Part shown: positions 8,614-27,930 of the stretch, piece after piece
Layout of the letters: each line of letters begins with the position of its first letter
Numbering within the stretch: position 1 is the stretch's first letter
Origin: a bacterium
Lineage (GTDB): Bacteria; Hydrothermota; Tepidihabitantia; SM23-42; JAOAFX01
NCBI GenBank assembly: GCA_036796695.1
Contig: DAIRCK010000015.1
Coordinates: 438-64,437 of the forward strand
Length of the DNA: 64,000 bases
Direction of reading: 5' to 3'
Made by a program: the position numbers and the translations under genes
The notes under the pieces: model-generated
What the model saw: the letters and a program-made list of their open reading frames with translations, nothing else
Databases searched by the model: none
What the model was told of the DNA's origin: nothing

Positions 8614-8743
8614 AGTTAAACACCTAACCTGGATTATTCATACTGTTTTTGGCTAAATTCGCTCAAATGCAGTGCCAGAGCGGGTTTGCGGTATTTTTTG
8701 ATAAAAAATAAACTCCACACATTGTTTTTTCTTTGCCATTGCG

Positions 8744-8840
8744 AGCCCTCGCCCATTATCAATGGGCGGGGCGAAACAATCCGACTTCGTCGTATCAGAG
8801 ATTACCACGCCCACGCCTTCGGCGTATGCTCGCAATGACA
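8744..8840. other. GC-rich structured intergenic element between accC and the BCCP gene
   Basis: A 10-bp outer inverted repeat (CATTGCGAGC / GCTCGCAATG) encloses hairpins CGCCCATTATCAATGGGCG and ACGCCTTCGGCGT. Local GC content is far above that of the surroundings. Confidence 0.35.
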
Positions 8841-8963
8841 TTGAGTATGAATAATGCAGACTAAATACTAAAATGCCTAGCCGAGTAAACTCGGCCACTA
8901 CATTAAATGAACCATCATTCGTCCGAATAAATTTGGACGCTACATTCATAGTAGAGATTATTA

Positions 8964-8992
8964 TGTGCGATAAATCGCACCGCTACATTTTT
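8964..8992. repeat. ATAAAT-loop hairpin motif, copy 1: TGTGCGATAAATCGCACCGCTACATTTTT
   Basis: Aligns with copies at 12081, 25851 and 26986. The palindromic arms covary around a fixed ATAAAT centre. Abuts the accC stop codon. Confidence 0.5.
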
Positions 8993-10485
8993 CTAAGCAT
9001 TGATTGACGGGCAGCGAGTTTCCAGGGACTTATACCTGCAGATGTAGACTTCACTTTATAAATCGTTGCTTTTTGTTCCTGGAGCAATTTTTTAACCATA
9101 GCCGCAATTGCTGCGGTCTGGTAATTCTCTTTTTTGTATTCAATCTTACCAAGTATTCTATCTATAAATGTCGTATCATAATCACCGGCAATGAATTGCG
9201 GATTTTCCATAACAAGTAAATGGAACGGAATTGAGGTTTTAATACCTCTTATCGTATACTCCTTCAATGCCCTTTTCATCCGTTTAATTGCTTCTTCTCT
9301 TGTCGGTGCCCAGACCAATAATTTGGCAATCAATGGGTCGTAGTATATTGGCACTTCAAAACCTTCGTATATTCCACTATCCAAACGCACACCTGGGCCA
9401 CCGGGTTCAATCAATTCTATTACCTTTCCAGTTGATGGCGCAAAATTGTTTTCCGGATCTTCAGCAGTGATACGACATTCAATTGCCGAACCATTTATTT
9501 TTATATCTCCCTTTCTTAATGACAACCTCTCACCTGCAGCAATCTTAAACTGCTCTTTCACAATATCAATTCCGGTGACAAGTTCAGTGACCGGATGTTC
9601 AACCTGCAAACGGGTATTCATCTCAAGAAAATAAAAGTTTCTATCTATATCAACCATAAATTCCACAGTACCGGCATTACTATAGCCTGATGCCTTTACT
9701 GCCTTTATTGCAGCCTCACCCATCTTTTCTCTCAATTCAGGTATCATAATTGCTGAGGGTGATTCCTCTATCAATTTCTGATGCCGACGCTGGATTGAAC
9801 ACTCCCTTTCGCAAAGATGCACAACATTACCGTAATTATCTGCAAGAACCTGGAATTCTATGTGCCGGGGCTGTTCAAGGAACTTTTCTATAAATATCGT
9901 GGGATTTCCAAATGCTGATTGTGCCTCACCAGTCGCCTGTTTTATCGCAGTTGACAAATCTTTTATATCGCGCACAACCCTCATCCCTTTTCCACCACCA
10001 CCACCTGCCGCTTTAATCAGAACCGGTAGACCTATCTTCTCAATGATTTTTAATGCCTCTGCCTCGTCCATTATTGCGCCTTCACTTCCTGGAATCACCG
10101 GTACACCTGCCTTTGTCATCGTAACCTTTGATGCAATCTTATCACCGAGTAATTCAATTGCCCTTGAATTGGGACCAATAAAGACAACACCTGAATCCTC
10201 ACACGCCTTTGCAAATTCAGTATTTTCTGCAAGGAAACCATATCCTGGGTGGATTGCCTCAGCACCACTCTTCTTCGCAATATCAATTATCTTTTCTATC
10301 CTTAAATAACTCTCACTTGCAGGTGAAGGTCCGAGATAATACACCTCATCTGCATATTTAGTATGCAGGGCATTTCGGTCTGCATCTGAATAGACCGTGA
10401 CCGACTTTATGCCCATCTCTCTGCAGGCACGCAGAACACGAACTGCAATCTCTCCCCTGTTGGCTACTAAGATTTTCTTGAACAT
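8983..10485 (-). CDS. accC: biotin carboxylase subunit of an acyl-CoA/pyruvate carboxylase
   Basis: N-terminus MFKKILVANRGEIAVRVLRA is classic AccC. ATP-grasp fold. The track begins at a TTG at 10509; the ATG at 10485 is preferred. Confidence 0.85.
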   Translation of the reverse strand: MFKKILVANRGEIAVRVLRACREMGIKSVTVYSDADRNALHTKYADEVYYLGPSPASESYLRIEKIIDIAKKSGAEAIHPGYGFLAENTEFAKACEDSGVVFIGPNSRAIELLGDKIASKVTMTKAGVPVIPGSEGAIMDEAEALKIIEKIGLPVLIKAAGGGGGKGMRVVRDIKDLSTAIKQATGEAQSAFGNPTIFIEKFLEQPRHIEFQVLADNYGNVVHLCERECSIQRRHQKLIEESPSAIMIPELREKMGEAAIKAVKASGYSNAGTVEFMVDIDRNFYFLEMNTRLQVEHPVTELVTGIDIVKEQFKIAAGERLSLRKGDIKINGSAIECRITAEDPENNFAPSTGKVIELIEPGGPGVRLDSGIYEGFEVPIYYDPLIAKLLVWAPTREEAIKRMKRALKEYTIRGIKTSIPFHLLVMENPQFIAGDYDTTFIDRILGKIEYKKENYQTAAIAAMVKKLLQEQKATIYKVKSTSAGISPWKLAARQSMLRKM

Positions 10486-10515
10486 AGTTTTTAAAAGTTT
10501 AACGTTCAACCATCT

Positions 10516-12063
10516 TTACAATGGTATATTTCCGTGTTTTCGTGGAGGATTTGTATCACGCTTGTTTTCAATCATCTCAAACGCCTCAATTACCCTTGGC
10601 CTTGTCTCGTGCGGTCTAATGACAGCATCAATATAGCCTTTTGACGCAGTCACAAATGGATTGGCAAACTTGTCTGTATATTCATCTATCAGTTTCTTTT
10701 CCAACGCCTTTGGGTCTTTTGCCTCTTTGAGTTCTTTGCGGTATAGAATTTTCACTGCGCCATCAGGCCCCATCACTGCAATCTCAGCACTGGGCCAGGC
10801 AAAATTTATATCCGCGCGAGTATGTTTTGAACTCATAACACAATAGGCACCACCATAAGCCTTTCGAGTAATAACTGTAACACGGGGAACAGTCGCTTCA
10901 CAGAAGGCATATAAAAGTTTTGCCCCGTTCTTTATCACACCACCCCATTCCTGGGCAGTGCCAGGTAAAAATCCTGGAACGTCAACAAAGGTCAAAATTG
11001 GAATATTGAAACAGTCACAAAAACGAACAAATCTTGCACCTTTCATTGCTGAATCACAATCCAGAACACCAGCAAGAACCACAGGCTGATTTGCAACAAT
11101 ACCAATTGACCTGCCGTTTAATCGGGCAAAACCAACAATTAAATTCTTTGCATAATGTTTATGAACCTCAAGAAACTCACCATTATCAACCACCCTTTTT
11201 ATTACCTCGGACATATCATAAGGTTTTGTCGGACTATCCGGAATTATCTCATCAAGTTCTTTGTCCTGACGATTTATATCATCTGTGCAATCAATAGCAG
11301 GTGGGTCCTCAAGGTTATTCTGTGGAATATATGATAATAATTTTTTAATAAGCTCAATACACTCAACTTCGTTTTCTACAGCAAAATGGGCAACACCGGA
11401 TTTTTCATTATGAACCATTGCACCACCGAGTTGCTCAAATGTCACATCCTCATGGGTCGCAGCCTTTACTACATCAGGGCCAGTCAAAAACATATATGAG
11501 CCCTGAACCATTATCACAAAATCAGTCATCGCTGGTGAATAGACTGCACCACCAGCACAGGGCCCCATAATTGCTGAAATCTGTGGCACAACACCTGAAG
11601 ACAGAACATTGCGCAAAAAGACATCGGTATAACCGGCAAGACTATCTACCCCTTCCTGAATGCGTGCCCCACCAGAATCTTTAAGACCAATGATTGGACA
11701 ACCCATCTTCATCGATAAGTCCTGAAGTTTACAAATTTTCTCTGCATACGCTTTGGACAAAGAACCACCAAAGACTGTAAAATCTTCGGCAAAAACACAA
11801 ACCGGTCTGCCATTTATTCTACCATAACCTGTCACCACACCATCTCCAAGAATCTTTTGTTTATTCATATCAAAATCTGTGCAGCGGTGGGTAACAAACA
11901 TATCGGTCTCACGAAATGTGCCTTTATCAAGTAGCAAATCTATGCGCTCACGGGCAGTGAGTCTTCCTTTGTCATGCTGTGCCTTAATCCTTGCCTCTCC
12001 CCCACCAAGTAATGCCTGTTTTTCAAGCTCTTCGAGATGTTTCAATTTGTCTTTTATCTTCAT
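10516..12063 (-). CDS. pccB: acyl-CoA carboxylase carboxyltransferase subunit (PccB/MmdA, 12S family)
   Basis: Carboxyltransferase domain similarity throughout. The track start is a TTG at 12087. An ATG at 12063 preceded by GGGAGG is the likely start. Confidence 0.85.
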
Positions 12064-12080
12064 GAATCCTCCCAAATTAT

Positions 12081-12110
12081 TGTGCAATAAATTGCACCGC
12101 TACAAATTTT
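12081..12110. repeat. ATAAAT-loop hairpin motif, copy 2: TGTGCAATAAATTGCACCGCTACAAATTTT
   Basis: Lies in the 45-nt gap between the MBL gene stop and the pccB RBS. The arms covary with the other copies (TGCAAT/ATTGCA). Confidence 0.5.
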
Positions 12111-12990
12111 AATCCGAAATTGGTTGTAATACCGGCTTCCCATCTTTTTCTTTAATGAAGGCGAAGATCACCTTCGGGTCGTGTTCAAAAATCAATAACC
12201 AGTTTTCTGCAATCGCCTGTTTCAGAAATTTCTTTTTCAATTCTATCAATTCCAGAGGATAAAGGTCAAAACTTGTATGATAGGGTATTCTTATATGGGC
12301 TGAAGTGGGCATAAGATCACCCCAGAATATCGCCTTTTTACCTTCAGATTCAATCATTATTGATTGGTGTCCCTTTGTATGACTAATTGTATTTATAACT
12401 TTTATTCCAGGAATAATTTCGTATTCACCTTCTACCAGTATCAATTGTCCGGAGTTTTCAAGGGGAATGAAATTTTCTTTTAAATAGCTCGCCCTGGTTC
12501 GCTCATTAGGATGGGTTGCGTCATACCATTCCTGCTTTTGAATTATGTATTTTGCACGAGGAAAGGTGGAAATAATCTCATTGTTTCCAGACATAGGTCT
12601 ACCACTACTATCTGTGGCATTAAACTCTGGCTTATAGATTGTATTCCAGCCACAATGATCAAAATGGAGATGGGTATTTATGACAAAATCTATATCTTCA
12701 AGTTTTAATCCAAGATTTTTTAACCCAGTCTCAAGATCCGGTGGTTGTTTAACCGAATATATCTCACGAAATTTTTCATCAAGTTTATTTCCAATTCCAG
12801 TATCCAGGAGTATATTTGCATTCGGGGCCTTTATCAAAAGGCAGTTCAGGGGTATTTCAACGCGATTTAAATTATCAGGTTCAACAATTTTAGACCATAA
12901 CAATTTGGGCACAACCCCAAACATCGTTCCGCCATCAAGATAGAATGAACCATCTGATATTGGTATCAAATCAAATTTGCCGAGTTTCAA
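12109..12990 (-). CDS. MBL-fold metallo-hydrolase (293 aa)
   Basis: Has the HLHFDHCGWN zinc-binding motif. Apparent TTG start with an AGGAG RBS. Confidence 0.75.
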   Translation of the reverse strand: MKLGKFDLIPISDGSFYLDGGTMFGVVPKLLWSKIVEPDNLNRVEIPLNCLLIKAPNANILLDTGIGNKLDEKFREIYSVKQPPDLETGLKNLGLKLEDIDFVINTHLHFDHCGWNTIYKPEFNATDSSGRPMSGNNEIISTFPRAKYIIQKQEWYDATHPNERTRASYLKENFIPLENSGQLILVEGEYEIIPGIKVINTISHTKGHQSIMIESEGKKAIFWGDLMPTSAHIRIPYHTSFDLYPLELIELKKKFLKQAIAENWLLIFEHDPKVIFAFIKEKDGKPVLQPISD

Positions 12991-12993
12991 ATC

Positions 12994-13209
12994 CTACTCC
13001 TGCTTTTCTGTTTTATTCAATTTTTTCTCAATCGGATTTAGGAATTGTTCAATGGTAATATAAGGATTTACCTTCATCAATTTCTCAAGTATTTTTTTCC
13101 GTTCTTCATCAGTTTTTGCATTTAAATATTTTATTCGTAAAATATTTGTTTTTTCCCTTCTTTTTGCTCTTTTATGTAATTCAGATTGTCTGATTTGTCC
13201 TTTTCTCAT
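12994..13209 (-). CDS. small basic hypothetical protein (71 aa)
   Basis: ATG at 13209 with a strong RBS (GGAGGTG). Lys/Arg-rich. Function unknown. Confidence 0.5.
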   Translation of the reverse strand: MRKGQIRQSELHKRAKRREKTNILRIKYLNAKTDEERKKILEKLMKVNPYITIEQFLNPIEKKLNKTEKQE

Positions 13210-13321
13210 TTACACCTCCTCATTAAAAAGTTAACGGATAATGGTTTATGGGCATTGCAGCCCGTGAAAAAGAATTTTTAATTATCATTTGCTTTGAAAA
13301 GTCTATATTTCCGTATACCGT

Positions 13322-13762
13322 TCATTTTCGCTTCTTTGGTTTCTTCTGGTTTGCCTTTGTAATTTTAACTTCCTTTTTCACATTATTGTTTATCCAGTCA
13401 ACAATTTCACTCGTTGGGGTTCCTGGACCAAAAAGTTTCTTCACACCCATCTTTTCAAGTTTTTTCATATCATCCAGCGGAATTATTCCGCCACCAATGA
13501 CAGGGATATCCGCTTTCTTCTCTTTAAGTAGTTTCAATATCTTCGGGAATATTGTCATATGCGCACCAGAAAGAATAGAAAGTCCGATGACATCCACATC
13601 TTCCTGTATTGCGGCTTCCACGATTGCCTCACAGGTTTGATGAAGTCCTGTATAAATAACTTCCATTCCTGCATCACGCAGGGCTGCTGCAACAACCTTT
13701 GCCCCACGGTCATGGCCATCAAGACCGGGTTTACCGATTAAGACGCGAATTTTTTTATCCAT
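13322..13762 (-). CDS. acyl-CoA mutase B12-binding small subunit (146 aa)
   Basis: Has [12 protein letters not shown], the DxHxxG cobalamin-binding motif. Rossmann-like B12 domain. RBS GGAGGT. Confidence 0.85.
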
Positions 13763-13783
13763 ACTACCTCCTAAAAAAGCAGG

Positions 13784-13836
13784 AATCGCAGTATCATTAC
13801 ATTCGCAGTATCGTGCCTATCGGCACTCGCAGTATC
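13784..13836. repeat. three direct repeats of TCGCAGTATC between the B12-subunit gene and the icmA-like gene
   Basis: Copies at about 13786, 13803 and 13827. Related inverted units TTCTGCGAA lie at about 13859 and 13893. Confidence 0.4.
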
Positions 13837-13938
13837 GCATTCGGTTCATAAAACCGTTTTCTGCGAATCTGCCGACGGTGATGATACTGGGTCTTCTGCG
13901 AACACGCCAAACGGTGTGGCGGGCGATCCTGCACTTTC

Positions 13939-15579
13939 TTAAAAAATGATTGGTTCATGATACACACCGAATTCTTCTTTCAAAGTAGAACACATCTCTC
14001 CAAGTGTAGCATATGCGCGGACACACTCAAGGATTCTGGGCATCAAGTTTTCACCATTTGCTGCTGCCTTACGCAGGTCTTTCAATTTTTCTTTTACTTT
14101 TGCGTTATTTCTTTCTTTCTTAACCTTCTTCAAACTCTTTATCTGTTCAATCTCAACTTCAGGCGGGATTTTTAAAATCTCAATATCTGGTTTTTCTTCT
14201 TCTTCAAAGATATTTATCCCCACATGGTATTTTTCTCTTTTTTCAATTGCCTGCTGATATTCATAGGCACTGCGAGCAATCTCTTTCTGGAAGAATCCTT
14301 TTTCAATTGCTGGCAATACACCGCCCAGTGCATTTATTTTATCAAAATACTCATAAGCCTTTTTCTCCATTTCATTTGTAAGGTATTCAACATAGTATGA
14401 ACCACCGAGTGGGTCAATTACATTTGCTACACCTGTTTCATAGGCAATGAGTTGTTGAGTTCGTAGAGCAATCTTCACTGCCTTTTCAGTAGGTAAAGCA
14501 TATGTCTCATCCATTGAATTCGTATGTAACGATTGAGTTCCACCGAGGACTGCGGCAAGTGCCTGGAATGCAGTTCGCACGATATTATTTTCTGGTTGCT
14601 GGGCAGTCAATGTGCATCCTGCAGTCTGGGTATGGAATCGCATAAGCCAGGAGCGAGGGTCCTGGGCATTATATTTTTCGCGCATCAATTTTGCCCATAT
14701 CCTTCGTGCCGCACGATATTTAGCAATCTCTTCAAAAAAATCAAGATGGGAATTAAAGAAAAAAGAAAGACGAGGTGCGAATTTATCAACCGGTAATCCC
14801 GCCTTTATTCCATATTCAACATAGGTAAATCCATTGGCAAGGGTAAAGGCGAGTTCCTGGATTGCAGTTGCACCGGCTTCACGAATATGGTATCCGGAGA
14901 TTGAAATTGTATTCCACTTTGGCACATTGTCTGAGCAAAAAGCAAGAATATCAGTTATTATTCTCATTGAGGGTCCAGGTGGATAAATCCAGGTTTTCTG
15001 TGCCTGGTATTCCTTTAACATATCATTCTGGATTGTGCCGGTAAGCATATGCGAAGGAACACCCTGCTTTTCACCAACTACAATATACATAGCAAGTAAC
15101 ATTGCTGCAGGTGGATTGATGGTCATTGAGGTAGAGATTTTATCAAGGGGAATTCCATCAAATATTATTTCCATATCCCTCAATGTATCAACTGCAACCC
15201 CGCATTTACCAACTTCACCGTGGGAGAATGGATCATCAGAATCTCTACCGTAAAGTGTAGGAAAATCAAAGGCAACAGAAAGACCTGTCTGTCCGTGCTT
15301 TAATAAATATTTATATCTCTTATTCGTATCCTTTGGTGTGCCCATTCCAGAAAACTGGCGCATTGTCCAGAGCCTGCCCCGATACATTGTAGTTTGAACA
15401 CCTCTGGTAAATGGGTATTCACCTGGATATCCGAGATCGCGTTCATAAACAAAATCAGGTATATCATCAGGGGTATATAGTGGGTTTAGTGGAATACCAG
15501 AAATTGTTGTAAATTTGTGGTCTCGCTCATTGCAAGTTTTATACTTTTGTTCCCATTGCTCTTTTTGCTTCTTAGACAT
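13939..15579 (-). CDS. icmA: isobutyryl-CoA-mutase-type acyl-CoA mutase large subunit (catalytic domain only)
   Basis: Paralog of 6432-7976. It has Phe (RQFSG) and Gln ([12 protein letters not shown]) where MCM has Tyr and Arg; this is the known ICM-versus-MCM signature. ATG at 15579 with RBS AAGGAGGT. The track start is a TTG at 15594. Confidence 0.8.
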
Positions 15580-15613
15580 TGCACCTCCTTTCAATCTTTT
15601 CAGAAACTGTAGA

Positions 15614-15657
15614 GGAGCACCCAGTCCTTAATAGTATCGCGGTTAGGAAACCGCTCC
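15614..15657. other. conserved nested hairpin motif, copy 2, in the icmA leader
   Basis: GGAGCACCCAGTCC..TCGCGGTTAGGAAACCGCTCC. Shares both stems with 5582-5621. Lies between meaB and icmA. Confidence 0.4.
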
Positions 15658-15731
15658 AACTTTAGTTTTGCTACATAAAATCCATGGATAATCACTAATC
15701 AGAACACAGATTTCCGCAGAAAAATTTAATA

Positions 15732-16667
15732 TCATTTTTTATTAATTAAACTTCTTAATATTTTCTTTGCTACTTTATATGGGCTCAATTTTCTTTCAAA
15801 AATTCTTTCTACAAATCTATCAAGTTCTTTGTCGTCAATTACTGATTCGTGCAAATGTCTTCTTATTTCTGATTCTATAAACTCATGTATTTGATTTAAA
15901 ATGCGCAATTTTCTAATTTTCTTTAATTCGCCGCTATTTTTGAGATGATCTTCGTGCATCTTTAATGCCTTAATAAATTCATCAATGCCTGATTCATCTG
16001 TAGCAATTGTCTTCAAAATGGGTACACGCCAGGAAGTCTTAGGTCTTAAATCAAAAGCGAATTTCAATTCCATTAAAAGTGCATCACTCCCTTCGCGGTC
16101 TGCCTTATTTACCACTACGATATCTGCGATCTCCAACAATCCTGCCTTCATTGTCTGTATAGAATCACCTGATTCTGGAACAAGCACCACAACTTTTGTA
16201 TCACAGACCTGGGCAATATCAAGTTCTATTTGACCAACTCCAACGGTTTCGATGAGAATATAATCCATCCCTGCGGCATCAAGAACCAGAGCCACATCCT
16301 TTGTCTTCTTTGAAAGACCACCGAGGCTTCCCCTTGTTGCCATACTGCGGATAAAGACATTCTTCTGGAGTGCCAAATCGCCCATTCTTATTCTATCACC
16401 AAGCAATGCACCACCAGAAAATGGTGATGTTGGGTCAACGGCAATAATACCAATTTTGTGATTTTCTTTAAGCAATTTTTTTGCAATTGCATTGACCAGA
16501 GTTGACTTCCCCGCACCAGGAGGACCGGTAATACCAATTTGATATGCCCTGCCTGTATAAGGGGAAATTTTATCAAGGATATCTACTCCTGTATCATTTT
16601 CAACCAAACTGATTATCTTTGCAATACTGATTTTATCGCCTTTTAGAAGATTTCTTATCAAATCCAT
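15732..16667 (-). CDS. meaB: MeaB/ArgK-type G-protein chaperone of acyl-CoA mutase
   Basis: P-loop GITGPPGAGKST and VNKADREG (NKxD). Confidence 0.9.
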   Translation of the reverse strand: MDLIRNLLKGDKISIAKIISLVENDTGVDILDKISPYTGRAYQIGITGPPGAGKSTLVNAIAKKLLKENHKIGIIAVDPTSPFSGGALLGDRIRMGDLALQKNVFIRSMATRGSLGGLSKKTKDVALVLDAAGMDYILIETVGVGQIELDIAQVCDTKVVVLVPESGDSIQTMKAGLLEIADIVVVNKADREGSDALLMELKFAFDLRPKTSWRVPILKTIATDESGIDEFIKALKMHEDHLKNSGELKKIRKLRILNQIHEFIESEIRRHLHESVIDDKELDRFVERIFERKLSPYKVAKKILRSLINKK

Positions 16668-16829
16668 TTAAAACACCAATTTATTTTTAATATCTTCGGG
16701 AATTAATGCAATCGATCTCTTGTCTGCGTCAATAAAAGGAATCTTCTTTTCCTTAAGTATCCTCGTAAATTCCTGTAATAAATCTTTCTTCTCTTTTGCC
16801 ACTCTTTTAACAAATTCTTTTTTAGTCAT
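16668..16829 (-). CDS. possible small ORF (53 aa) translationally abutting meaB
   Basis: Reads MTKKEFVKRVAKEKKDLLQEFTRILKEKKIPFIDADKRSIALIPEDIKNKLVF. Its TAA stop is immediately followed by the meaB ATG. No clear RBS. Confidence 0.3.
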   Translation of the reverse strand: MTKKEFVKRVAKEKKDLLQEFTRILKEKKIPFIDADKRSIALIPEDIKNKLVF

Positions 16830-16855
16830 AATTTTGAAATGCAGAATGTAATTGC

Positions 16856-17350
16856 CTATTGGCCAAAATTTCTTTTCTTTAACTTATTTAACCAATATAC
16901 ATCTGCTCTATCTCTTTCTCGGAATGAGTTTTTTTTTGTGGCTATGAGTTTATTAATACTTAATACTGGAATTTTAATGTTACCTATCTCCTTAATTATC
17001 ATATCTTTGCTTGCCTCTTCATAATCTAATTGCCATAATTTTGAGATAAGGTCTATTTCAATTTCACCCGCAATTTTTACAGTCTGGTATTTTTTAATGT
17101 CACTCAATCTCAATTTTTTTATTTCAGGATTTATTGACTTTAAGGAATCTTTTATTTTTTTGGCATTCTCAATAGAAGGTTCAACAATAAAATCATAATC
17201 AATGGTTAACCTTTCTTGACCAGAAATTTCTTCAATTCCATGTAGTTTGCAGGCGTAGGCACCACAAACAACATATTTTACTTCATATTCATTAAACCTT
17301 TGGCAAATTTCTACGAATTGTTTATCTATCTTTTTATTAGTCCATCCCAT
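16856..17350 (-). CDS. minimal nucleotidyltransferase, paralog 3 (164 aa)
   Basis: Has VVCGAYACKLHGIEE..TIDYDFIV, a G[GS]..D.D-like motif. The C-terminus RERDRADVYWLNKLKK is shared with the other paralogs. Confidence 0.6.
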   Translation of the reverse strand: MGWTNKKIDKQFVEICQRFNEYEVKYVVCGAYACKLHGIEEISGQERLTIDYDFIVEPSIENAKKIKDSLKSINPEIKKLRLSDIKKYQTVKIAGEIEIDLISKLWQLDYEEASKDMIIKEIGNIKIPVLSINKLIATKKNSFRERDRADVYWLNKLKKRNFGQ

Positions 17351-17571
17351 GAGAACATTACCCTTTTAAATTCATCTTCATTCTTCTCTTTTATAGTCTT
17401 GAACCGATATATTCCTGAAGGATATGCCTTTACTCTCAGACGAATCCACTCAAATCGGTCAAAATCTTCTACCTTTTCACCTTTTTCTAATCGGTTTATC
17501 AGCTCCCATCCGCTCTGCTCCTCAATTGTTTTGAACCTAATAATACGGTCTTTCTTCTTTTTGAATTTCAT
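17326..17571 (-). CDS. small partner protein of NTase paralog 3 (about 81 aa from the ATG at 17571)
   Basis: Overlaps the NTase start. Its LRVKAYPSGIYRFKTIKEK tail is homologous to the 6231-6425 protein. Its ATG shares one base with the GNAT stop codon (TGATG). Confidence 0.45.
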   Translation of the reverse strand: MKFKKKKDRIIRFKTIEEQSGWELINRLEKGEKVEDFDRFEWIRLRVKAYPSGIYRFKTIKEKNEDEFKRVMFSWDGLIKR

Positions 17572-18125
17572 CACCAAACTTCTTTGGTCTTCCTTTTCTT
17601 TATAAAATCTTTCTTTAACAAACCAAACATTAGCACATCAACAAAATTTCTTCCATCAAAATATGCCTTGCGTCTTACGCCTTCTTTTTTAAAACCCAGC
17701 GATTTTAACAAATAGTAACTTACTTTATTAAACTCATAGACTTCTGCATCAACACGATGAGCGCCTTTTTTAAACAGGAAATTTAAGAAACATATCAGCG
17801 CTTCCTTTGCATAACCTTTGTCCCGCTCTTCGCCTAAAGCAAATCTCAACCAAGCAAGACGGTGTGCGTAGCCAAACCAATTGATACGAATATAACCAAT
17901 TGGCTTGTCTGTTTTTTTAATAACAATTATGCTATATAAATCGGATTTTGATTTCAGTGCCCTCTTAATATCATCTCTCTGATTTCTTAATGATATCTTC
18001 ATATCTGGGCTGAGTGCCATCTTCTTTACAAGCGGGTCTTTTTTCCATTTTGTAATAATCTTCGATTCTGATATTTTAACTTCTCTTATATAGATTCTAT
18101 TGTTTTTAAAAATAATATTTGACAT
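17571..18125 (-). CDS. GNAT family N-acetyltransferase (184 aa)
   Basis: Acetyl-CoA binding core RINWFGYAHRLAWLRFALGEE..KGYAKEAL. Confidence 0.75.
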   Translation of the reverse strand: MSNIIFKNNRIYIREVKISESKIITKWKKDPLVKKMALSPDMKISLRNQRDDIKRALKSKSDLYSIIVIKKTDKPIGYIRINWFGYAHRLAWLRFALGEERDKGYAKEALICFLNFLFKKGAHRVDAEVYEFNKVSYYLLKSLGFKKEGVRRKAYFDGRNFVDVLMFGLLKKDFIKKRKTKEVW

Positions 18126-18156
18126 TAGTGTCTATAAATTGAATTATGCTAATTTA

Positions 18157-20318
<2,162 letters not shown>

Positions 20319-20531
20319 AATATGGTTAAATGGTTAAATGTTTTAATCACGGTTTTCACATTGATAAAATTTTTTACGAGATTCTTAAAAAAACGATTAA
20401 TTCCCTCTATTCGCGGTTCTTTCCCTATCCAATCCAGTTTTTTTTTGATTCAACCTTAGTACACATTATTCATAGTAATGACAGGCGTAGAAGAGAGATT
20501 GCCACGAATTAAGAATCATAGAAGGCTACTA

Positions 20532-21707
20532 CTACTTGAGCGATTCCCACAGTATCTCTGAAACATCCATTACCTTTATCTCAGAATTCATTGATTTCAG
20601 TGTCTCTTCAAACATCTGGAGACAATAAGGGCAAGCAACAGCAATCACTTCTGCACCAGTATTTAACAATTGTTTCAATCGCAAATTCGCAAGCCTCTCT
20701 TCATTTGCATATTCACGCCATAATCCCATTGAACCAGCACCACAGCAAATACTATTTTTCCGGTTAAAGAATGGGACTTCAACGAGTTTCAATTCTGGAA
20801 TAGATTTTAATATCTCTCTTGGCTCTTCATAAATACCACTCTGCCTTCCGAGAGTGCAAGGGTCATGATAAACAACAGTCTTATTGAATGGATTTCTTGG
20901 TTTTATTTTACCTGTTTTTATCTGCTCAAAGATGACCTGTGTATAGTGGAATGGCTGGATATTATGATAATTTTTATACTCGTTATTGAAAATCGTATAA
21001 CAATGGGATGAAATTGTAATTGTATTTTTCACATTTAAATCTCTGAACATTTTGAGATTGCTATCAAAGAGTTGCCTGAACACCTTTTCTCCACCAGCCC
21101 GACGCACCGCCTCACCACAACAAACCTCTTTATCGCCATCTATTCCAAACTTTATTTCTGCCTTCTGAAGTACCTGTGCTATGGAATATGCTACACTCTT
21201 TGCCCTTGTATCATAAGCAGTTATACAACAGACAAAAAGAAGATAATCAAGTTCTCCAGTAAATTTTGGTATTGTTAGTCCATCTGCCCAACCCTTTCTC
21301 TTATCCTGTGATTCACCCAGGGGATTACCATTGCTACTCAACCTTAGGAATAAACTCTTCAACTCCTGTGGATATGAACCAAAATCAATCATTATTCTGC
21401 GTGCAGAACGAAGAATATTGGATATATTCACTTTTCTCGGGCACTCATAAAGGCAACTATCACAGCCAACACACCGAAAGACCTCATTGGTTTCCTGACA
21501 GATTGCATCTTTTTCTTCACTGCAAAGAATCGCTCCCAATCTTATTAAATCAGGGAATTGGTAAGTTGTATAGTTCACACTATCAACCATATTCCAGGGA
21601 CAGGCAGCCATACATCTGCCGCACTCATAACATTTTAATGCATCTTCTGCTCCCTGTTCAAGGAGCAGTTCACGGATTTCAGGATTGAGTTTGATTATGC
21701 TGGACAT
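20532..21707 (-). CDS. (Fe-S)-binding oxidoreductase of the HdrD/GlcF/GlpC family with two CCG domains (391 aa)
   Basis: Two 4Fe-4S ferredoxin motifs (CYECGRCMAACP, CVGCDSCLYECP). Two CCG motifs (VCCGEAV, ICCGAGS). No TM helices seen. Confidence 0.8.
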   Translation of the reverse strand: MSSIIKLNPEIRELLLEQGAEDALKCYECGRCMAACPWNMVDSVNYTTYQFPDLIRLGAILCSEEKDAICQETNEVFRCVGCDSCLYECPRKVNISNILRSARRIMIDFGSYPQELKSLFLRLSSNGNPLGESQDKRKGWADGLTIPKFTGELDYLLFVCCITAYDTRAKSVAYSIAQVLQKAEIKFGIDGDKEVCCGEAVRRAGGEKVFRQLFDSNLKMFRDLNVKNTITISSHCYTIFNNEYKNYHNIQPFHYTQVIFEQIKTGKIKPRNPFNKTVVYHDPCTLGRQSGIYEEPREILKSIPELKLVEVPFFNRKNSICCGAGSMGLWREYANEERLANLRLKQLLNTGAEVIAVACPYCLQMFEETLKSMNSEIKVMDVSEILWESLK

Positions 21708-21759
21708 AATTTGGTTATTTGGTTAATAGTTTAAATGACGTACGTATTTTTTGTAATTC

Positions 21760-22161
21760 TTAAGAATTCTTTTCTAATATCTCCACAATTTCATCAGCAA
21801 CATCCTTAGCGGATTTGTCCGTTATATCAACCTCTACTTTTGTTTTCTCTTTCCAGCGCCCAGCCTCTTTTTCTTTAAAGATAATAAGAACTTTTTGTTC
21901 AGCCATCTTCTCCGGTGAGATATCCAGGCGGACACTTTTATTATTTTTGTCACTTTTTAACATCATTTCAAAACTAACAATTTCTTTTTCTATTTCTTTA
22001 TCCCAACCTTTGGTGGGAACGGTATATTTTGACCCGATTTTCTTTATTATTGCATCTTCCAATTTCGCTTTTTCTTCTCTATACCTCTGTATGGCATCTC
22101 TTATCGTCTCTATATTTTTCAGAAAAAATTTGCTGAATTCCCCAAAAATTGGTCCTTCCAT
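21760..22161 (-). CDS. hypothetical protein (133 aa)
   Basis: ATG with RBS AAGGAGGT. Charged, soluble. No motif recognised. Confidence 0.45.
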   Translation of the reverse strand: MEGPIFGEFSKFFLKNIETIRDAIQRYREEKAKLEDAIIKKIGSKYTVPTKGWDKEIEKEIVSFEMMLKSDKNNKSVRLDISPEKMAEQKVLIIFKEKEAGRWKEKTKVEVDITDKSAKDVADEIVEILEKNS

Positions 22162-22162
22162 T

Positions 22163-23125
22163 TTAACCTCCTTGGCATGATAATATTCTAAATCTCCTCA
22201 GGTTATTTTCTATGTGTTTCCGATTTTCACCATTGAAAAATTTAATCAACTTGGTTATAATCTGTGTAATAAATTGTGCTATAGCAAATTTAAAATATGG
22301 ATTTATAGTCTTATTATTTTCAATTTCCACATATAATTCCGAAATCAATAAAATGAGTCTCCACCAATCCATTACTTTCCATTCATCTGAACTGAGTTTG
22401 ATTTGATTGTCTTTATTCGGATCAGGATTTAATTTAGGATCTAAATATATTTTAAATTGCCTAGGTCTGTTTAATTTAGAATTGTTTAAAGCCTCATCGT
22501 ATCTTTTTAATTGATTTCTGCCTTCTTTTGTGCGAATTTTCATTTCTATTGCACAAAAAAATTTATCAGACACAATGAGCAAATCAATTCCATATTTTTC
22601 CCGTTGAACTATAGTGTTTGTAAAATCATCATCAGAAAATGGGGTTTTATCTTCGTTTTGGTCACCACAAGTTTTTACGATATAATTTACAAAGATTTTG
22701 GTAAATAAATTTCCTAAAGCATGGCAAGAATTTGAATTAAGAAGCCAAGCTAGAAAATCGCGATAATGTCCTTCTTGGATGTCAAAATATTCAAATAAAT
22801 TAATTTTGCATTCATTCATACTTAGAATTTCAAAAACTTTTCTTTCTCTTGGGTCTAAATTTCTAATTTCATCAACAATCATCTCACAATATTGTTTTAA
22901 AAATTTTTTAAATTCCTCTTCCTTTTCCTTCATAAGTTTTTTGTATCCATAAAGGAAAACATGGAACTTCTTTGCTCTATTATCCTCTGCCTCTCTCAAA
23001 TATTGCTTATATTGCTCCACAAAATTAGTTAATAAAGCTAAATTGTGATAGTGATAGTTGTTTATCATTTGTGTGTATTCCTGAACAAATTTGTTAAATT
23101 TTTCTATGAGCGAGAAATCACTCAT
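22163..23125 (-). CDS. hypothetical protein with a possible PD-(D/E)xK nuclease core (320 aa)
   Basis: IDLLIVSDKFFCAIEMKIRTKE fits a D-x13-E-x-K pattern. Otherwise unassignable. Confidence 0.4.
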   Translation of the reverse strand: MSDFSLIEKFNKFVQEYTQMINNYHYHNLALLTNFVEQYKQYLREAEDNRAKKFHVFLYGYKKLMKEKEEEFKKFLKQYCEMIVDEIRNLDPRERKVFEILSMNECKINLFEYFDIQEGHYRDFLAWLLNSNSCHALGNLFTKIFVNYIVKTCGDQNEDKTPFSDDDFTNTIVQREKYGIDLLIVSDKFFCAIEMKIRTKEGRNQLKRYDEALNNSKLNRPRQFKIYLDPKLNPDPNKDNQIKLSSDEWKVMDWWRLILLISELYVEIENNKTINPYFKFAIAQFITQIITKLIKFFNGENRKHIENNLRRFRILSCQGG

Positions 23126-23161
23126 AAGACTCCACTGTCTTTGATTCTTCGGATAAATTTA

Positions 23162-23407
23162 TTATTCCCATGTATCATAAAACATGCCTTCCTTAAAACA
23201 GTTTGTTAAGAAAGAGGAGAATTCATCATCTACCCATATAGCACGCCAATCTTCTAAATCTTCTACGCTACATTCTACCCAATTAATTCTCCTGCCTTTT
23301 GTAGATTCCATTCTTATTGATACTGCTGAGGGAAAATGAATCGCTTCGTATCCAGGCTGGTATACAACTTCGAATCCAACTTCCATTTCTAACTTAACGC
23401 AATTCAC
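23162..23407 (-). CDS. hypothetical protein (81 aa)
   Basis: ORF only. Confidence 0.3.
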   Translation of the reverse strand: MNCVKLEMEVGFEVVYQPGYEAIHFPSAVSIRMESTKGRRINWVECSVEDLEDWRAIWVDDEFSSFLTNCFKEGMFYDTWE

Positions 23408-23465
23408 ATAGGGTTTTTTGAATAATGTGGGGGCAATTTGATTAAACTGTGCAAGAGCCGATGCT

Positions 23466-24431
23466 TCAAATAATGATAAGGCAGCACCGACCCCCCCATA
23501 ATTTTCCGGCTTTTATACAGGCCTGGCGTGCTTTTTTGCTCATAGCGTAAGAAATAGTTACAGTGCTATCTTTATACTCAACTGAAACAGATCCTCTTTT
23601 CACATCGGCTGTTTGGGTCCATACCTTCTCTATAATCTTAAGAATTTTTGCTTCAAGTTCTTTTCTCTCTCGTTCCAACTTTGCTAATCTTATTTCTTCC
23701 TGCTTCTTTGCTTCTTCAAATTTATTAAATAACGTAATAAATGAGGATGGTATCGTAAGTTCTTGTTTAACCGTAGGTTCGTCTGCTAATTTAACCAGAA
23801 AGTTTATTTCTGCTTTTTCTGGACATAATTTTATAATGCTATCCGCAGGAATACTGATTACGCCCAATGAGTCAGTTTTTAGGACTAATGAATATGGAGT
23901 CTCATTGATTTCTACAGTTATGTATTTATAATGAAGAGGGATAGGAGTAAAATCGATATCGTCATCAAATTTTTTCTGAGTTTTAATATATTTTTTATGC
24001 TGACCCAAAAACAATGCTGAAACAACCCCGATGCTACCCACGCCAATTAAATCTCTACCAAGCGCAATATAACCGGTGGTCGCATTTGTATCAAGTAATA
24101 GGTAACAGCCCACTCCCCCTAAAACACAGCCGCTAATCCCCATAGTCCATGCGGCGATTGGATGTAAATACTTTTCATAAGTAATTATAGAATTATAATT
24201 ATGCCTTTCCCGAATAAGTTCCTGAAAACGTAAAACGAAATTAGGGTCAACCTTTGAATAAGCATTCAATTCTTCACTCGGCTCCAGGTCAAAATGTGGA
24301 GATGAGACCAATTTAATTTCTATTTTTCGTTCAATTCTTTCATCACCTAATGGCACTCTTTCTGTGCCGACTTTTATTGTTGCACAATGAATAAGCAAAA
24401 GGCTAAAAACCACTATCTTTATGTTGTTCAT
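23466..24431 (-). CDS. secreted/membrane protein with a C-terminal coiled coil (321 aa)
   Basis: N-terminal signal-like segment MNNIKIVVFSLLLIHC, internal TM helices, and a KQEEIRLAKLERERKELEAK coiled coil. Confidence 0.5.
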   Translation of the reverse strand: MNNIKIVVFSLLLIHCATIKVGTERVPLGDERIERKIEIKLVSSPHFDLEPSEELNAYSKVDPNFVLRFQELIRERHNYNSIITYEKYLHPIAAWTMGISGCVLGGVGCYLLLDTNATTGYIALGRDLIGVGSIGVVSALFLGQHKKYIKTQKKFDDDIDFTPIPLHYKYITVEINETPYSLVLKTDSLGVISIPADSIIKLCPEKAEINFLVKLADEPTVKQELTIPSSFITLFNKFEEAKKQEEIRLAKLERERKELEAKILKIIEKVWTQTADVKRGSVSVEYKDSTVTISYAMSKKARQACIKAGKLWGGRCCLIII

Positions 24432-24642
24432 TTTCGCTCCTTTTTTGAAAATACATCAAGCGCAAATCCCTAGCCATCTATTTGCAATTGAAGTGTTTTT
24501 TTTCGCATTGTCAGTTCACCTCTGATATTATTTTGTATTTGTTTTTCCCCGTATTTAAAAAATTTCATTTATCAACGGAGACTCTTCCTTAAAGTAAATA
24601 AAGAATTTATTTTAGCGCTTCTTGATAATAAATCAGGTTTAT

Positions 24643-25101
24643 TCACGGTCTTATTTTTATTATACGAAGCCCATCGTCATCATCTGCAACATAGGCATAA
24701 GAACCACAAACATAGACATCGTTTGCATAGTCCGGGGTATCATAATAGCCAACCTCAGTGGGAAGACTCTTAACTATTGTAGAATCAGTTTTGCGCCAGT
24801 TGCCTGCAACATCAAAGGCTTTAGCCCATATGGTATGCATAGAACCATCCATAATCCTCTGCCATTGATAAGAGAATGGTTTACTGTTAAGTGTGGTAAG
24901 AAGCGTATCGTCAGCGTAGAGTTCAACTTTTTCAACATTTTTATTGTCATCTACTTGAAGAACTATTTCGACTTTCTCCGAAATAAAAGAACCTTCCTCA
25001 GGCGAAATTATTTTAACCTCAGGCGGTTCTATGTCAAAAATAAAATCGCATTTTACCAGACCGATTACAAGTAAACTTATTATTAGAGGAGTTAAACGCA
25101 T
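24643..25101 (-). CDS. small secreted protein (152 aa)
   Basis: Signal peptide [18 protein letters not shown]. Predicted beta-rich. Confidence 0.5.
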
Positions 25102-25153
25102 TATTCACCCCCTTTATTTAAAATGCTGACATTGTTTATCAGAAAATATTTAA

Positions 25154-25411
25154 TCATTTTATTTTTACAACATTATACTCATTGAAAAGGTTATTTTTTA
25201 CCCAAGCATCCGCCGATTTCATTACTTTTTTAATGTCGGATTCTATGGATAAAGGATACAATATAGGAATTACTTCAGTAGGACTTCTTTTGAAAAAGAG
25301 AATAGAACAATAGTAATTTAGAAAGTCTCCATATCTACTAATGATTAACCGACAACAATCTTTACCATCCCGGGCTATAAACCTATAGATGAAAGTTTCT
25401 ATTTTAATCAT
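25154..25411 (-). CDS. hypothetical protein (85 aa)
   Basis: ORF only. Confidence 0.3.
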   Translation of the reverse strand: MIKIETFIYRFIARDGKDCCRLIISRYGDFLNYYCSILFFKRSPTEVIPILYPLSIESDIKKVMKSADAWVKNNLFNEYNVVKIK

Positions 25412-25850
25412 TTCAAGTAGTTATAGCAAAGAATAAAAGAAAGTCAATATCCAGGCTAATGAGCTTTATCTTTCTACCCTATCGAGCATTCGCGAAAGAC
25501 CTTTTAAGTATCTTGTAACTATACCTACGATTACTAATCTCTGTAATAAACTCTTCCAACAATGTCTTCATTTTAAGACAACCCAGTAAGTCCGACAAAA
25601 TATAGCAAAGTCATGAGTTCTATTCGGTGTTTCACCTTTGTTCTCTTCATTTTTTGCCTCGTATACTTTTCCAGAACGAAATGGCACATAAAGACTTTGT
25701 AGATATACGCACCAGTGTTAAACATATGTGAGGCAGTATCAAACTCATAAATTGTAGAATCTAACAAGTTCTGAGGTTTGATTTCATCGGTGATTAACAA
25801 ATTCTATTAAAAAATACCGTAAGGCAATATCACTATTTACTACTATCTTT

Positions 25851-25882
25851 TGTGCGATAAATTGTAACGTTACAATTTCTTG
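25851..25882. repeat. ATAAAT-loop hairpin motif, copy 3: TGTGCGATAAATTGTAACGTTACAATTTC
   Basis: Aligns with copies 1 and 2. Has an additional perfect palindrome AAATTGTAACGTTACAATTT. Lies downstream of etfA. Confidence 0.45.
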
Positions 25883-25955
25883 TTTTTGAATTTGGAATTT
25901 TTATCATTGGTGCTTGTTTAGAATTTAGGTTTTAGTGCTTAGGATTTCATTCTTT

Positions 25956-26936
25956 TTATTTTGCTTGTTTTAACTCAAGTATCTTATTCTTCAAAACCGG
26001 CACGACTTTGAACAGATCTTCAACAATTCCGTAATCTGCTTCGTTGAATATTGGTGCATTCGGGTCTTTATTCACAGCAATAATTGTATCAGAATTTTTC
26101 ATTCCCATTATATGTTGAAATGCACCAGAGATTCCAAGTGCGATGTATAACTTCGGTTTCACTGTCTTTCCTGATGAACCGACCTGATGTTCTTTTGGTA
26201 ACCAGCCTGCATCAACTACCGGTCTTGTGCATCCGAGAACACCGCCAATTGCCTTTGCAAAATCTTCTATTACTGGCAGATTAGCTTTATCTTTTATACC
26301 TCTTCCCACAGAGACAATTATGTCTGCCTTAGTAATATCAACTGCACCAACCGCTGCCTCAATGTATTCAATAAATTTCCGATATTCAGGTTGGGAATTC
26401 AGCGGTGTCTCTAATTTAACAACTTCTGCCTCAAGATTTCCAGTTTCTACCGGTATACTGCCGCTACGATAAGTCACAAGATACGATGGATTCTCTTTCA
26501 ATAAAATTCTTGCATTCAACTTTCCATCATACATTGACCTTATGACCCTTAATTTACCATCAAAAACCTGAACATCTATACAATCAGTGGAAAATGGAAT
26601 ATTCAATTGTGTAGCAAGAGATGGTCCTAAATCCATACCCATTGCAGTGTGGCCAATAATTGTGAGAAATGGATTTTCTTTTTTCAATATCTCATTTAAG
26701 GCAATCTGATAACTCTCCGCATTGAAATCCTTAAAAATCGCATTTTCCATCACGATAATCCTGTGGGCACTATTTTTCAACTGCCCGATAAATTTTTCTG
26801 TATTGTCAGAAAGTAAGACTGCACTGCACTGGGTATTTAAAGTTTGAGCAAGTTTTCTTCCCAGAGTTAAAAGTTCAAATGTAATATCCCTTATCACACC
26901 CTGACGGTGTTCAACCAAAGCAAAAATTCCATTCAT
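25956..26936 (-). CDS. etfA: electron transfer flavoprotein alpha subunit
   Basis: Etf alpha FAD-binding domain (VSVGRGI, PKLYIALGISGAFQH). 326 aa. No N-terminal ferredoxin domain. Confidence 0.9.
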   Translation of the reverse strand: MNGIFALVEHRQGVIRDITFELLTLGRKLAQTLNTQCSAVLLSDNTEKFIGQLKNSAHRIIVMENAIFKDFNAESYQIALNEILKKENPFLTIIGHTAMGMDLGPSLATQLNIPFSTDCIDVQVFDGKLRVIRSMYDGKLNARILLKENPSYLVTYRSGSIPVETGNLEAEVVKLETPLNSQPEYRKFIEYIEAAVGAVDITKADIIVSVGRGIKDKANLPVIEDFAKAIGGVLGCTRPVVDAGWLPKEHQVGSSGKTVKPKLYIALGISGAFQHIMGMKNSDTIIAVNKDPNAPIFNEADYGIVEDLFKVVPVLKNKILELKQAK

Positions 26937-26985
26937 AGTGGCTCCTTAGTCAATAATTGTAGTTGTCTGATTCATCAGATATGTT

Positions 26986-27012
26986 TGATAAATCAAACCG
27001 CTACATTGGAAC
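26986..27012. repeat. ATAAAT-loop hairpin motif, copy 4: TTTGATAAATCAAACCGCTACATTGG
   Basis: Lies between etfB and etfA. The arms covary (TTTGAT/ATCAAA). Confidence 0.45.
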
Positions 27013-27159
27013 TACTGAAAAAACTATAAACCATACTATTCGTCATGCTGAACCTTATCCTGGATTTAGTTCAGGATTGTTTAAGCATCCTATTAGACCC
27101 TGAAATAAATTCAGGGTGACAGAATACTTTTTCAGCAATTGCGCATAGATTATTCGGCA

Positions 27160-27930
27160 TTAAAGTAATCCCTTTTCCTTTATTATTCCGGCAAGTTTTG
27201 TTGCAACTTCATCAGCACTGCCTGTGAGTATTTCTGCCCTTTTTCCAACAGGTGGCAAGAAAAGTTCCTCAAGTGTAGTATTTGAAATAACATCTAAACC
27301 AATATCAGATTTCCCTATTGTCTTTATCTCCTTGCTTGCAGCCCTTCTGATTGCAATAAGAGATGCAAAACGCGGAGTGTTTATCCCAGTCTGTATTGTA
27401 ACCAATGCCGGAAGGTTTAGTTCAAGATGTTCAAGTAACCCACCTTCAAGTTCACGATAGACCTGTGCCTTATTGTTTGCAATATCAAATTTTGTAACGA
27501 GTGAGGCGTGTGGGATTCCTAATAACTCTGCCAATGTCTGTCCCACCATTGAATAGGCATCATCGGTTGACATACAACCAGTGAGGATCAAATCATAAGG
27601 TAATCCTTTTATCACCGAGTTTAATATTACTGCAGTCTTATAACCATCTATCTCGCCAAAATCCTCAGCCTTAATTCTTACTGCTGAATCACCACCTTTT
27701 GCCAGTGCAATCCTTAAGGTATCCTCGGTATCTGGATAACCAAGACTCACCACAGTAACAGTTCCACCATATTTCTCCTTTAATAAAATAGCCTCTTCAA
27801 GTGCATAACTATCAGATTCATTCATATCAAAGGCAAGACGGTCTTTTACAATATCCTTGCCCGTTGAATCAATCTTTACATCCGCCTCTGCGGTTTGAGG
27901 CACCCGTTTGATGCAGACGATAATATTCAA
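27160..27930 (-). CDS. etfB: electron transfer flavoprotein beta subunit
   Basis: Etf beta family throughout (MNIIVCIKRVPQT..). TTG start with RBS GGAGG. Confidence 0.9.
   Translation of the reverse strand: MNIIVCIKRVPQTAEADVKIDSTGKDIVKDRLAFDMNESDSYALEEAILLKEKYGGTVTVVSLGYPDTEDTLRIALAKGGDSAVRIKAEDFGEIDGYKTAVILNSVIKGLPYDLILTGCMSTDDAYSMVGQTLAELLGIPHASLVTKFDIANNKAQVYRELEGGLLEHLELNLPALVTIQTGINTPRFASLIAIRRAASKEIKTIGKSDIGLDVISNTTLEELFLPPVGKRAEILTGSADEVATKLAGIIKEKGLL

Follow-up and report, generated by a model that had tools for sequence, protein, structure and literature searches.

Repetitive extragenic palindromic (REP) sequences of the GTAG-tagged superfamily are characterized by an unpaired GTAG, a stem of 6-13 bp and a short loop, and they form sub-families in which stem changes are complementary (PMC3733652). 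They were described as singletons, dimers and clusters lying between unidirectional or convergent open reading frames (ORFs), with some intragenic copies, and they can donate the TAG of a stop codon (PMC3733652). The genes of the tyrosine transposases associated with REPs (RAYTs) are flanked by inverted REPs (PMC3733652; PMC2817692). The RAYTs of Escherichia coli, Stenotrophomonas and Marinomonas were found to use the GTAG strand in single-stranded form as their substrate, but not the complementary strand; cleavage requires GTAG, the cut is made at a nearby CT, and for the short perfect REPs of group 3 the enzyme reads mainly the head and the loop (PMC8266576). The present analysis concerns a hairpin motif that recurs within the acyl-CoA operons of a 64-kb stretch of bacterial DNA (contig DAIRCK010000015.1, positions 438 to 64,437; the whole stretch is called the window below). 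This motif is very probably a REP family of the GTAG-tagged superfamily and not a regulator of these operons, because its anatomy, covariation, dispersal, arrangement, site turnover and association with RAYT genes match the definition of GTAG REPs. The family itself appears to be undescribed, and a full-text literature search for the motif sequence gave no match, whereas the kind of element is well known.

The motif can be compared with several described systems. As in the GTAG-1 and GTAG-2 families (Di Nocera, De Gregorio and Rocco 2013, PMC3733652), an unpaired dinucleotide separates GTAG from the stem. With the superfamily as a whole it shares the unpaired GTAG, a stem of 6-9 bp, a short loop, complementary stem changes, the occurrence of singletons, dimers, tandems and clusters, a preference for sites between unidirectional or convergent ORFs with a few intragenic copies, the use of TAG as a stop codon and a RAYT gene flanked by repeats. 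It differs in being AT-rich, in its hosts, which are uncultivated anaerobes, and in its conserved 4-nt loop, TTTA or TTCA, published loops measuring 2-3 nt in many families (many of them TY or CMA). Short perfect palindromes placed after GTAG are also found in the group 3 RAYT/REP systems of Stenotrophomonas maltophilia and Marinomonas (Mb), where cleavage depends critically on GTAG and on the bases of the loop and less on the sequence of the stem, which matches the fixed head and loop and the variable central stem of the motif (Corneloup et al. 2021, PMC8266576). Nevertheless, group 3 loops have 3 nt instead of 4. The REPs and bacterial interspersed mosaic elements (BIMEs) of E. coli, with their TnpA-REP (RayT/YafM), have in common with the motif the GTAG head, the hairpin, the intergenic or operon-internal location, the alternating dimers and a domesticated HUH transposase that is present in single copy between REPs. 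On the other hand, E. coli REPs are of about 35 nt, GC-rich and carry a required bulge, whereas the stems of the motif are short and perfect. Finally, the subterminal hairpins of IS200/IS605 elements are likewise single-stranded DNA hairpins recognised by a Y1 HUH transposase, but the units of the motif are of about 23 nt, non-autonomous and without an internal transposase.

Anatomy of the motif and its copies in the window

All genes between 4.3 and 30 kb of the window lie on the minus strand, and Pfam assigned them to methylmalonyl-CoA mutase, biotin carboxyl carrier protein (BCCP), biotin carboxylase, carboxyltransferase (PccB), an MBL-fold protein, MeaB, EtfA, EtfB and acyl-CoA dehydrogenases, in agreement with the accC, pccB, etfA and etfB calls of the preliminary description of this DNA. 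Read in the sense of these genes, the motif consists of (T)GTAG-CG, a 6-bp stem, a TTTA loop and the second stem arm. A minus-strand scan for TGTAG(C/T)G located six copies, with the T of TGTAG at positions 27005, 25874, 12104, 8987, 8944 and 8902. A covariance model (R1, from alignment A1) was built from these six and, when run over the window, returned exactly the same copies above 30 bits. An independent repeat search delineated a family, D4, at 8961-8991, 12078-12108, 25848-25878 and 26979-27009. In the same way, the pattern ATAAAT-N5-CGCTACA with at most two mismatches gave 9 matches in the window for 1.9 expected, a number reached in 0 of 100 shuffles. The four aligned copies of the preliminary description lie at the positions that it gave. 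The additional hairpin that it placed at about 8905 does exist but corresponds to copy 2 (Table 1). Its five copies were thus all real, yet the window holds seven, copy 3 and the inverted copy 7 having been missed. The tail CCGCTACA that it noted is indeed conserved but equals the reverse complement of the GTAG head by which REPs are defined.

Table 1. Coordinates of the motif copies, of the RAYT gene and of the arrays flanking it in the window (sister-class hairpins and the RAYT gene are presented in the third section)
Feature	Position	Strand or orientation	Form	Covariance model score (bits)
Copy 1	8965-8987	-	TGTAG-CG-GTGCGA-TTTA-TCGCAC; single-stranded DNA hairpin of -6.1 kcal/mol	44.7
Copy 2	8920-8944	-	TGTAG-CGTCCAAA-TTTA-TTCGGACG; 8-bp stem with one A.C mismatch	36.4
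Copy 3	8880-8902	-	TGTAG-TG-GCCGAG-TTTA-CTCGGC	37.4
Copy 4	12082-12104	-	TGTAG-CG-GTGCAA-TTTA-TTGCAC	39.9
Copy 5	25852-25874	-	TGTAA-CG-TTACAA-TTTA-TCGCAC; decayed (GTAA head)	34
Copy 6	26983-27005	-	TGTAG-CG-GTTTGA-TTTA-TCAAAC; etfB-etfA gap	39.3
Copy 7	26958-26980	+	TGTAG-TT-GTCTGA-TTCA-TCAGAT; inverted	22.8
RAYT gene	44340-44798	+	HUH motif PNHLHLL and catalytic Tyr motif YYILNNPV, both intact	
Upstream REP array of the RAYT gene	44176-44335	both	four sister-class GTAG hairpins; repeat families D3 and D5	
Downstream REP array of the RAYT gene	44800-44912		97% identical to part of the upstream array; repeat families D3 and D5	

Copies 1 to 3 form a head-to-tail array (8880-8987) with a spacing of 42-43 nt, and accC (8983-10509), which encodes the biotin carboxylase, ends with the TAG in the head of copy 1 (8985-8983) as its stop codon. 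Copy 4 begins 5 nt past the stop codon of the gene for the MBL-fold protein, and about 10 nt separate its end from the ribosome-binding site of pccB. Copy 5, located 82 nt past the etfA stop, is the only one of the seven with GTAA instead of GTAG; on the plus strand its arms can pair only with the help of two G.T wobbles, on the gene-sense strand they contain mismatches, and its minimum-energy fold as single-stranded DNA is not the canonical hairpin. Copies 6 and 7 are separated by 2 nt and constitute an inverted dimer with the GTAG heads outside (TGTAG...CTACA), similar to a REPIN, that is predicted to fold as a single hairpin of -8.3 kcal/mol (26958-27005).

Metagenome contigs were scanned with TGTAGCGGTNNNATTTATNNNAC (17 specified bases), which matched at least 120 of them (loci L081-L200), and the covariance model retrieved 148 copies over these loci, the window and its relatives. 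Stem covariation was observed at both scales. In the six window copies of the alignment, every one of the six stem pairs was changed on both sides and 88.9% of stem cells were paired, against 22-50% when the partner was slid. Among the 148 copies, 97.4% of stem cells were paired and 245 cells carried double changes, a level reached in 0 of 500 shuffles. A regular-expression scan collected 89 distinct stem variants. The outer G-C, a Y-R pair and the closing A-T pair are kept, while the three central pairs are free to vary. Head and loop were strongly conserved in the 53 copies in which they were not forced by the search pattern (G in 52, T in 53, A in 53 and the final G in 51; TTTA or TTCA loop in 53). 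The distance from GTAG to the loop is 8 nt in 266 of 318 GTAG hairpins, with 6, 7 or 8 of these bases paired. Units measure 22-25 nt, within the 20-50 nt of GTAG REP palindromes, with a stem of 6-8 bp and a loop of 4 nt.

A stem that is variable yet complementary, together with a fixed loop and tail, points to a single-stranded nucleic acid hairpin (RNA or DNA) and not to a dimeric operator, as had been proposed from the arm covariation, which proved to be real. A double-stranded operator bound by a dimeric transcription factor, or else a promoter element of the sigma-54 type (GG-N10-GC), has hardly any probability. The palindromes at 12104 and 27005 do lie near gene starts, and TGCA-N-TTGCA in one copy resembles the sigma-54 -24/-12 elements. 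However, the arms change sequence without a conserved half-site, the GG-to-GC spacing is one base off the consensus, the -12 element is missing in most copies, sigma-70-like matches in the region are no commoner than in shuffles and the distance to the gene starts varies. A role as intrinsic terminators of transcription, or as attenuators, between the genes of an operon, which the hairpins found soon after stop codons (copies 1 and 4) could evoke, has next to no likelihood either. No T-run is present past the stem on either strand, the 6-bp stems contain few G-C pairs, antisense and dimeric copies are common, and a terminator scan of positions 8000-27500 gave 11 sites for 11.5 expected, none of them at a copy.

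Dispersal among unrelated genes and turnover at orthologous sites

The motif is abundant outside the window. The regular-expression scan counted 277 copies in 0.91 Mb of motif-bearing loci and 3 in 1.25 Mb of control loci, the control being 77 distant pccB loci in which the three matches are at chance level. The pccB loci were taken from 80 genomes. When the covariance model was run over 22 of them, only the two closest gave matches, L001 (PccB 95% identical to that of the window) and L002 (87%), and the 20 more distant ones gave none. The closest matches of the window PccB include a metagenome-assembled genome of Cloacimonadota. GTAG REPs typically number more than 100 copies in one genome; for the motif, abundance was seen across metagenomes, where single loci of 9-20 kb have up to 6-9 copies. 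The genes next to the copies in the metagenome contigs include an ABC transporter, HlyD, a sulfatase, Fur and nucleotidyltransferases, none of them connected with acyl-CoA metabolism. Crude gene calls placed 110 of the 148 copies (74%) between genes, although non-coding DNA makes up only about 15%.

Copies between co-directional genes are oriented in sense in 41 cases and in antisense in 27. Singletons stand in unidirectional (41), convergent (11) or divergent (7) settings and, in the metagenome loci, 26 are sense and 15 antisense. As for the arrangement, 84 copies stand alone, 52 pairs are inverted dimers whose GTAG heads are on the outside (gaps mostly of 2-17 nt), 47 pairs are in tandem, and in 11 dimers the heads are on the inside. 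Tandem pairs are common for the motif (47 against 52 inverted), whereas they are rare in most published GTAG families. The 52 inverted dimers, like the one at 26958-27005, recall the REPINs of Pseudomonas, in which two inverted REPs make one larger hairpin (Bertels and Rainey 2011, PMC3116915). The motif differs in that singletons and tandem pairs are as common as the inverted ones, and the dimer does not clearly stand out as the unit of replication. Moreover, in nine cases the ORF upstream of a copy has the TAG of the REP head as its stop codon.

A few copies are found inside long ORFs, one example being the PurL gene of L155, where the copy falls in an inter-domain linker. In L126 (174-1691 and 1854-1887) and L155 (2296-2329), copies are in frame within ORFs and encode peptides such as NVAVQFIAQ; a Y1-transposase-like gene with a degenerate HUH motif holds three tandem copies and an inverted dimer, and a nucleotidyltransferase gene holds one.

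The occupancy of sites is not conserved between close relatives. The DNA upstream of pccB contains one copy in the window, two copies with different stems in L001 and none in L002 or in a further relative, L003. The gap between accC and the BCCP gene contains three copies and another GC-rich inverted repeat in the window, one copy in L002 and a decayed remnant in L001, while in L003 the two genes are 1 nt apart. The accC orthologue of L002 likewise takes its stop codon from the TAG of a REP head. One copy of L001, located between meaB and an asparaginase-like gene, is missing from the window. Copy sites thus vary even among relatives whose PccB is 83-95% identical, and such presence and absence at orthologous sites means that the copies behave as insertions into tolerant gaps and not as conserved parts of the operons.

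These data bear on the proposal that the motif is a dedicated cis-regulatory RNA or single-stranded DNA element of an acyl-CoA/propionate regulon, that is a processing site, an attenuator or the site of an RNA-binding regulator. All seven window copies do lie within two acyl-CoA gene clusters, and covariation with a fixed loop and tail is expected of a protein-bound hairpin. Yet this function, which the preliminary description had put forward, is contradicted by the at least 120 contigs in which the motif stands beside unrelated genes, by the turnover in the orthologous gaps of L002 and L003 and by the RAYT genes flanked by the motif. Its occurrence outside acyl-CoA genes, in both orientations and as inverted dimers, and sometimes inside ORFs, leaves neither position nor orientation fixed. 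In addition, the only Rfam match in the window at gathering score was a tRNA, and a search at E values up to 10 found nothing over the copies but a chance-level snoZ159 (E = 9.3) on copy 6. A regulon-specific element is thus very improbable.

RAYT genes and the origin of the copies

A RAYT gene of the window was found by tblastn with Y1-transposase queries (Table 1). Its product matches the NCBIfam model NF047646, 'REP-associated tyrosine transposase', with 104 bits (cut-off 80) as well as Pfam Y1_Tnp, and it aligns with an E. coli RayT sequence at 31% identity. The hairpins flanking it belong to a sister class of the forms GTAG-GGACAGGG-TTTAT/CTTGT-CCCTGTCC and GTAG-GGACAACC-CTTGT-GGTTGTCC, which has the same GTAG-to-loop geometry (8 nt) as the motif class. 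The same sister class surrounds the homologues of this RAYT in four other contigs (57-70% identity), and the motif's own class was not found at these four loci. Given the shared 8-nt geometry, it is possible that the window RAYT recognises the motif class too.

The motif's own class was observed around a RAYT of a different clade, P0125 of L208 (NF047646, 82.1 bits for a cut-off of 80). The upstream copy, GTAG-CG-GTGCAA-TTCA-TTGCAC, runs from 9995 on the plus strand and ends about 12 nt ahead of the likely start codon, and the downstream copy, GTAG-CG-GTGGCA-TTTA-TGCCAC at 10488 on the minus strand, overlaps the 3' end of the gene. The two are inverted with their heads outside, which is the REPtron arrangement. 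In L198, a RAYT of the P0125 clade lies about 0.8 kb from a motif-class copy. For both RAYTs, that of the window and P0125, the score exceeds the cut-off of NCBIfam for RAYTs but not that for IS200, and members of both clusters are labelled 'REP element-mobilizing transposase RayT' in IMG. The cluster of P0125 includes a protein labelled Elusimicrobia. The Y1-like gene of L126 was also considered as a cognate RAYT and was discarded, with its degenerate HUH motif and 36.5 bits against the NCBIfam cut-off of 80; REPs seem to have invaded this gene.

Several features of these RAYT loci deserve description. In the window, the RAYT frame has no ATG, GTG or TTG near the conserved N-terminus (about 44340), and the only in-frame start is an ATG at 44154 that overlaps the stop of the upstream HATPase_c gene (ATGA). 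The resulting ORF (44154-44798) spans the whole upstream REP array and gives a predicted protein of 214 aa, P0001. It is possible that the REPs encode an N-terminal extension, that the start is non-canonical or that the gene is disabled. The same order of HATPase_c gene, RAYT and 2Fe-2S thioredoxin-like gene is found in L201 (9388-11274) and L202 (9480-11464), which are two of the four contigs with homologues, and in the window (43606-45324), within a hydrogenase/NADH-dehydrogenase-like cluster. The RAYTs of these three contigs are 70% identical, and the REP arrays around them differ in length. The shared position suggests that the gene is domesticated and has been inherited vertically. In the P0125 clade, the coding sequence of the RAYT itself contains two GTAG hairpins at conserved positions (L198, about 335-360 and 500-525; L207, 10133 and 10316; L208, 10151 and 10334; L209, 10121 and 10304). 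One is of the form GTAG-TK-GCAGAG-MTTG-CTCTGC and the other, on the other strand, GTAG-TG-GCAAAG-CTYG-CTTTGC; the same two types are present as free REPs in L207 and L209.

If the motif is a REP family, its units would be non-autonomous elements that fold as single-stranded DNA hairpins. A RAYT (TnpA-REP), which is an HUH/Y1 enzyme, would read the GTAG head and the hairpin and would cut and rejoin the unit, and its action would seed intergenic DNA with singletons, tandem arrays and inverted dimers. The copies at accC/BCCP, MBL/pccB and etfB/etfA would then be chance insertions in tolerant operon-internal gaps. That RAYTs mobilise this class on single-stranded DNA is presumed by analogy with the E. 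coli, Stenotrophomonas and Marinomonas enzymes, and the conserved head and loop with the free central stem fit the published mode of RAYT reading.

Some observations weigh against a REP identity. The window has no RAYT flanked by the motif's own class, and its seven copies are all gathered between 8.9 and 27 kb of the 64 kb. The short stems are weak, with -2.5 to -6.3 kcal/mol for the single-stranded DNA. Stem mismatches on the GTAG strand, to which RAYTs are reported to bind, comprise 33 A.C for 18 G.T (p about 0.05; L081-L200, the window and L001-L003), which is not what simple selection on a GTAG-strand hairpin predicts; this asymmetry could reflect a bias of mutation between the strands or selection that acts on the complement. 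Finally, 11 of the 12 copies of the window, L001 and L002 carry GTAG on the gene-sense strand. This skew in the window lineage could result from RNA-level selection or from a replication-strand bias; the GC skew of the window follows gene orientation and is thus uninformative on the direction of replication.

The same sense orientation would be expected if the copies, although REPs by origin, had been co-opted as hairpins of polycistronic mRNAs that shield upstream segments from 3' exonucleases or tune the translation of the next gene, and so set the relative expression of accC/BCCP, pccB and etfB/etfA. Some E. coli REPs have been shown to play such an expression-setting role. Such a co-option, which would add to the REP identity and is not exclusive of it, may be evoked by the end of copy 4 about 10 nt ahead of the pccB ribosome-binding site, a site also occupied in L001, by the REP head that gives the accC stop codon in both the window and L002, and by the transcription that has been argued for many GTAG REPs (PMC3733652). 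Nevertheless, it is rather unlikely: the excess of sense singletons in the metagenome loci is only 26 to 15, sites are not kept even among relatives whose PccB is 83-95% identical, the hairpins are weak, and the mismatch pattern shows no G.U preference on the sense strand. A horizontally shared REPtron, with copies domesticated as operon-internal RNA or single-stranded DNA signals in the methylmalonyl-CoA/ETF (electron transfer flavoprotein) operons of syntrophic anaerobes, can be imagined because GTAG-CG-GTGCRA-TTYA-TYGCAC is near-constant in hosts apparently of different phyla and because of the sense bias in the window lineage. In this improbable scenario, domesticated copies might serve as stabilisers of mRNA segments or as a landing pad for a host factor.

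Other elements of the window and significance of the family

Intergenic gaps of the window genome collect several classes of palindromic elements. A 33-38 nt repeat, (C)GGATTCAAACAGATTTTAGCGGATTCAnACGGAT, with two GATTCAnAC half-units, occurs at 27960-27992, 29194-29231 and 32418-32455 on the plus strand and inverted at 29664-29704. It thereby occupies four gaps between genes in the region of the acyl-CoA dehydrogenases and etfB, and two of the four immediately precede the start of a gene. In contrast to the REPs, it could be a genuine operator or leader for these genes, or else another dispersed repeat. A GC-rich inverted repeat (cattgcgagc...gctcgcaatg) lies at 8740-8845 on the minus strand, between the REP trimer and the BCCP gene, and the etfB-etfA gap contains, at 27040-27125, the hairpins caccctgaatttatttcagggt and atcctgaac...ggttcag.

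Two groups of genes look inserted. At 4304-6234, a tyrosine recombinase of the phage integrase family and a DUF6036 nucleotidyltransferase stand beside the mutase gene. At 22163-25411, a PD-(D/E)XK nuclease-family gene, two ORFs of unknown nature and a Big_7/LVIVD fragment separate etfA from a CCG Fe-S oxidoreductase gene. In addition, three paralogous acyl-CoA dehydrogenase genes stand in a row just upstream of etfBA, with 73-79% DNA identity over aligned stretches (28374-28828 with 30041-30495, and 28099-28175 with 31367-31443).

For the annotation of such genomes, these hairpins are to be masked as REPs and not called as regulatory motifs, small ORFs or N-terminal extensions; the spurious 98-aa ORF at 8653-8949 and the RAYT ORF called from 44154 are examples of miscalls to avoid. 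The motif brings no new regulatory mechanism for propionate or acyl-CoA metabolism. It rather extends the GTAG-REP/RAYT system to AT-rich, uncultivated anaerobic lineages, and it provides two natural RAYT/REP pairs that have one geometry, with the loop 8 nt after GTAG, and different stems, and that could be used to study how RAYTs read their substrates.

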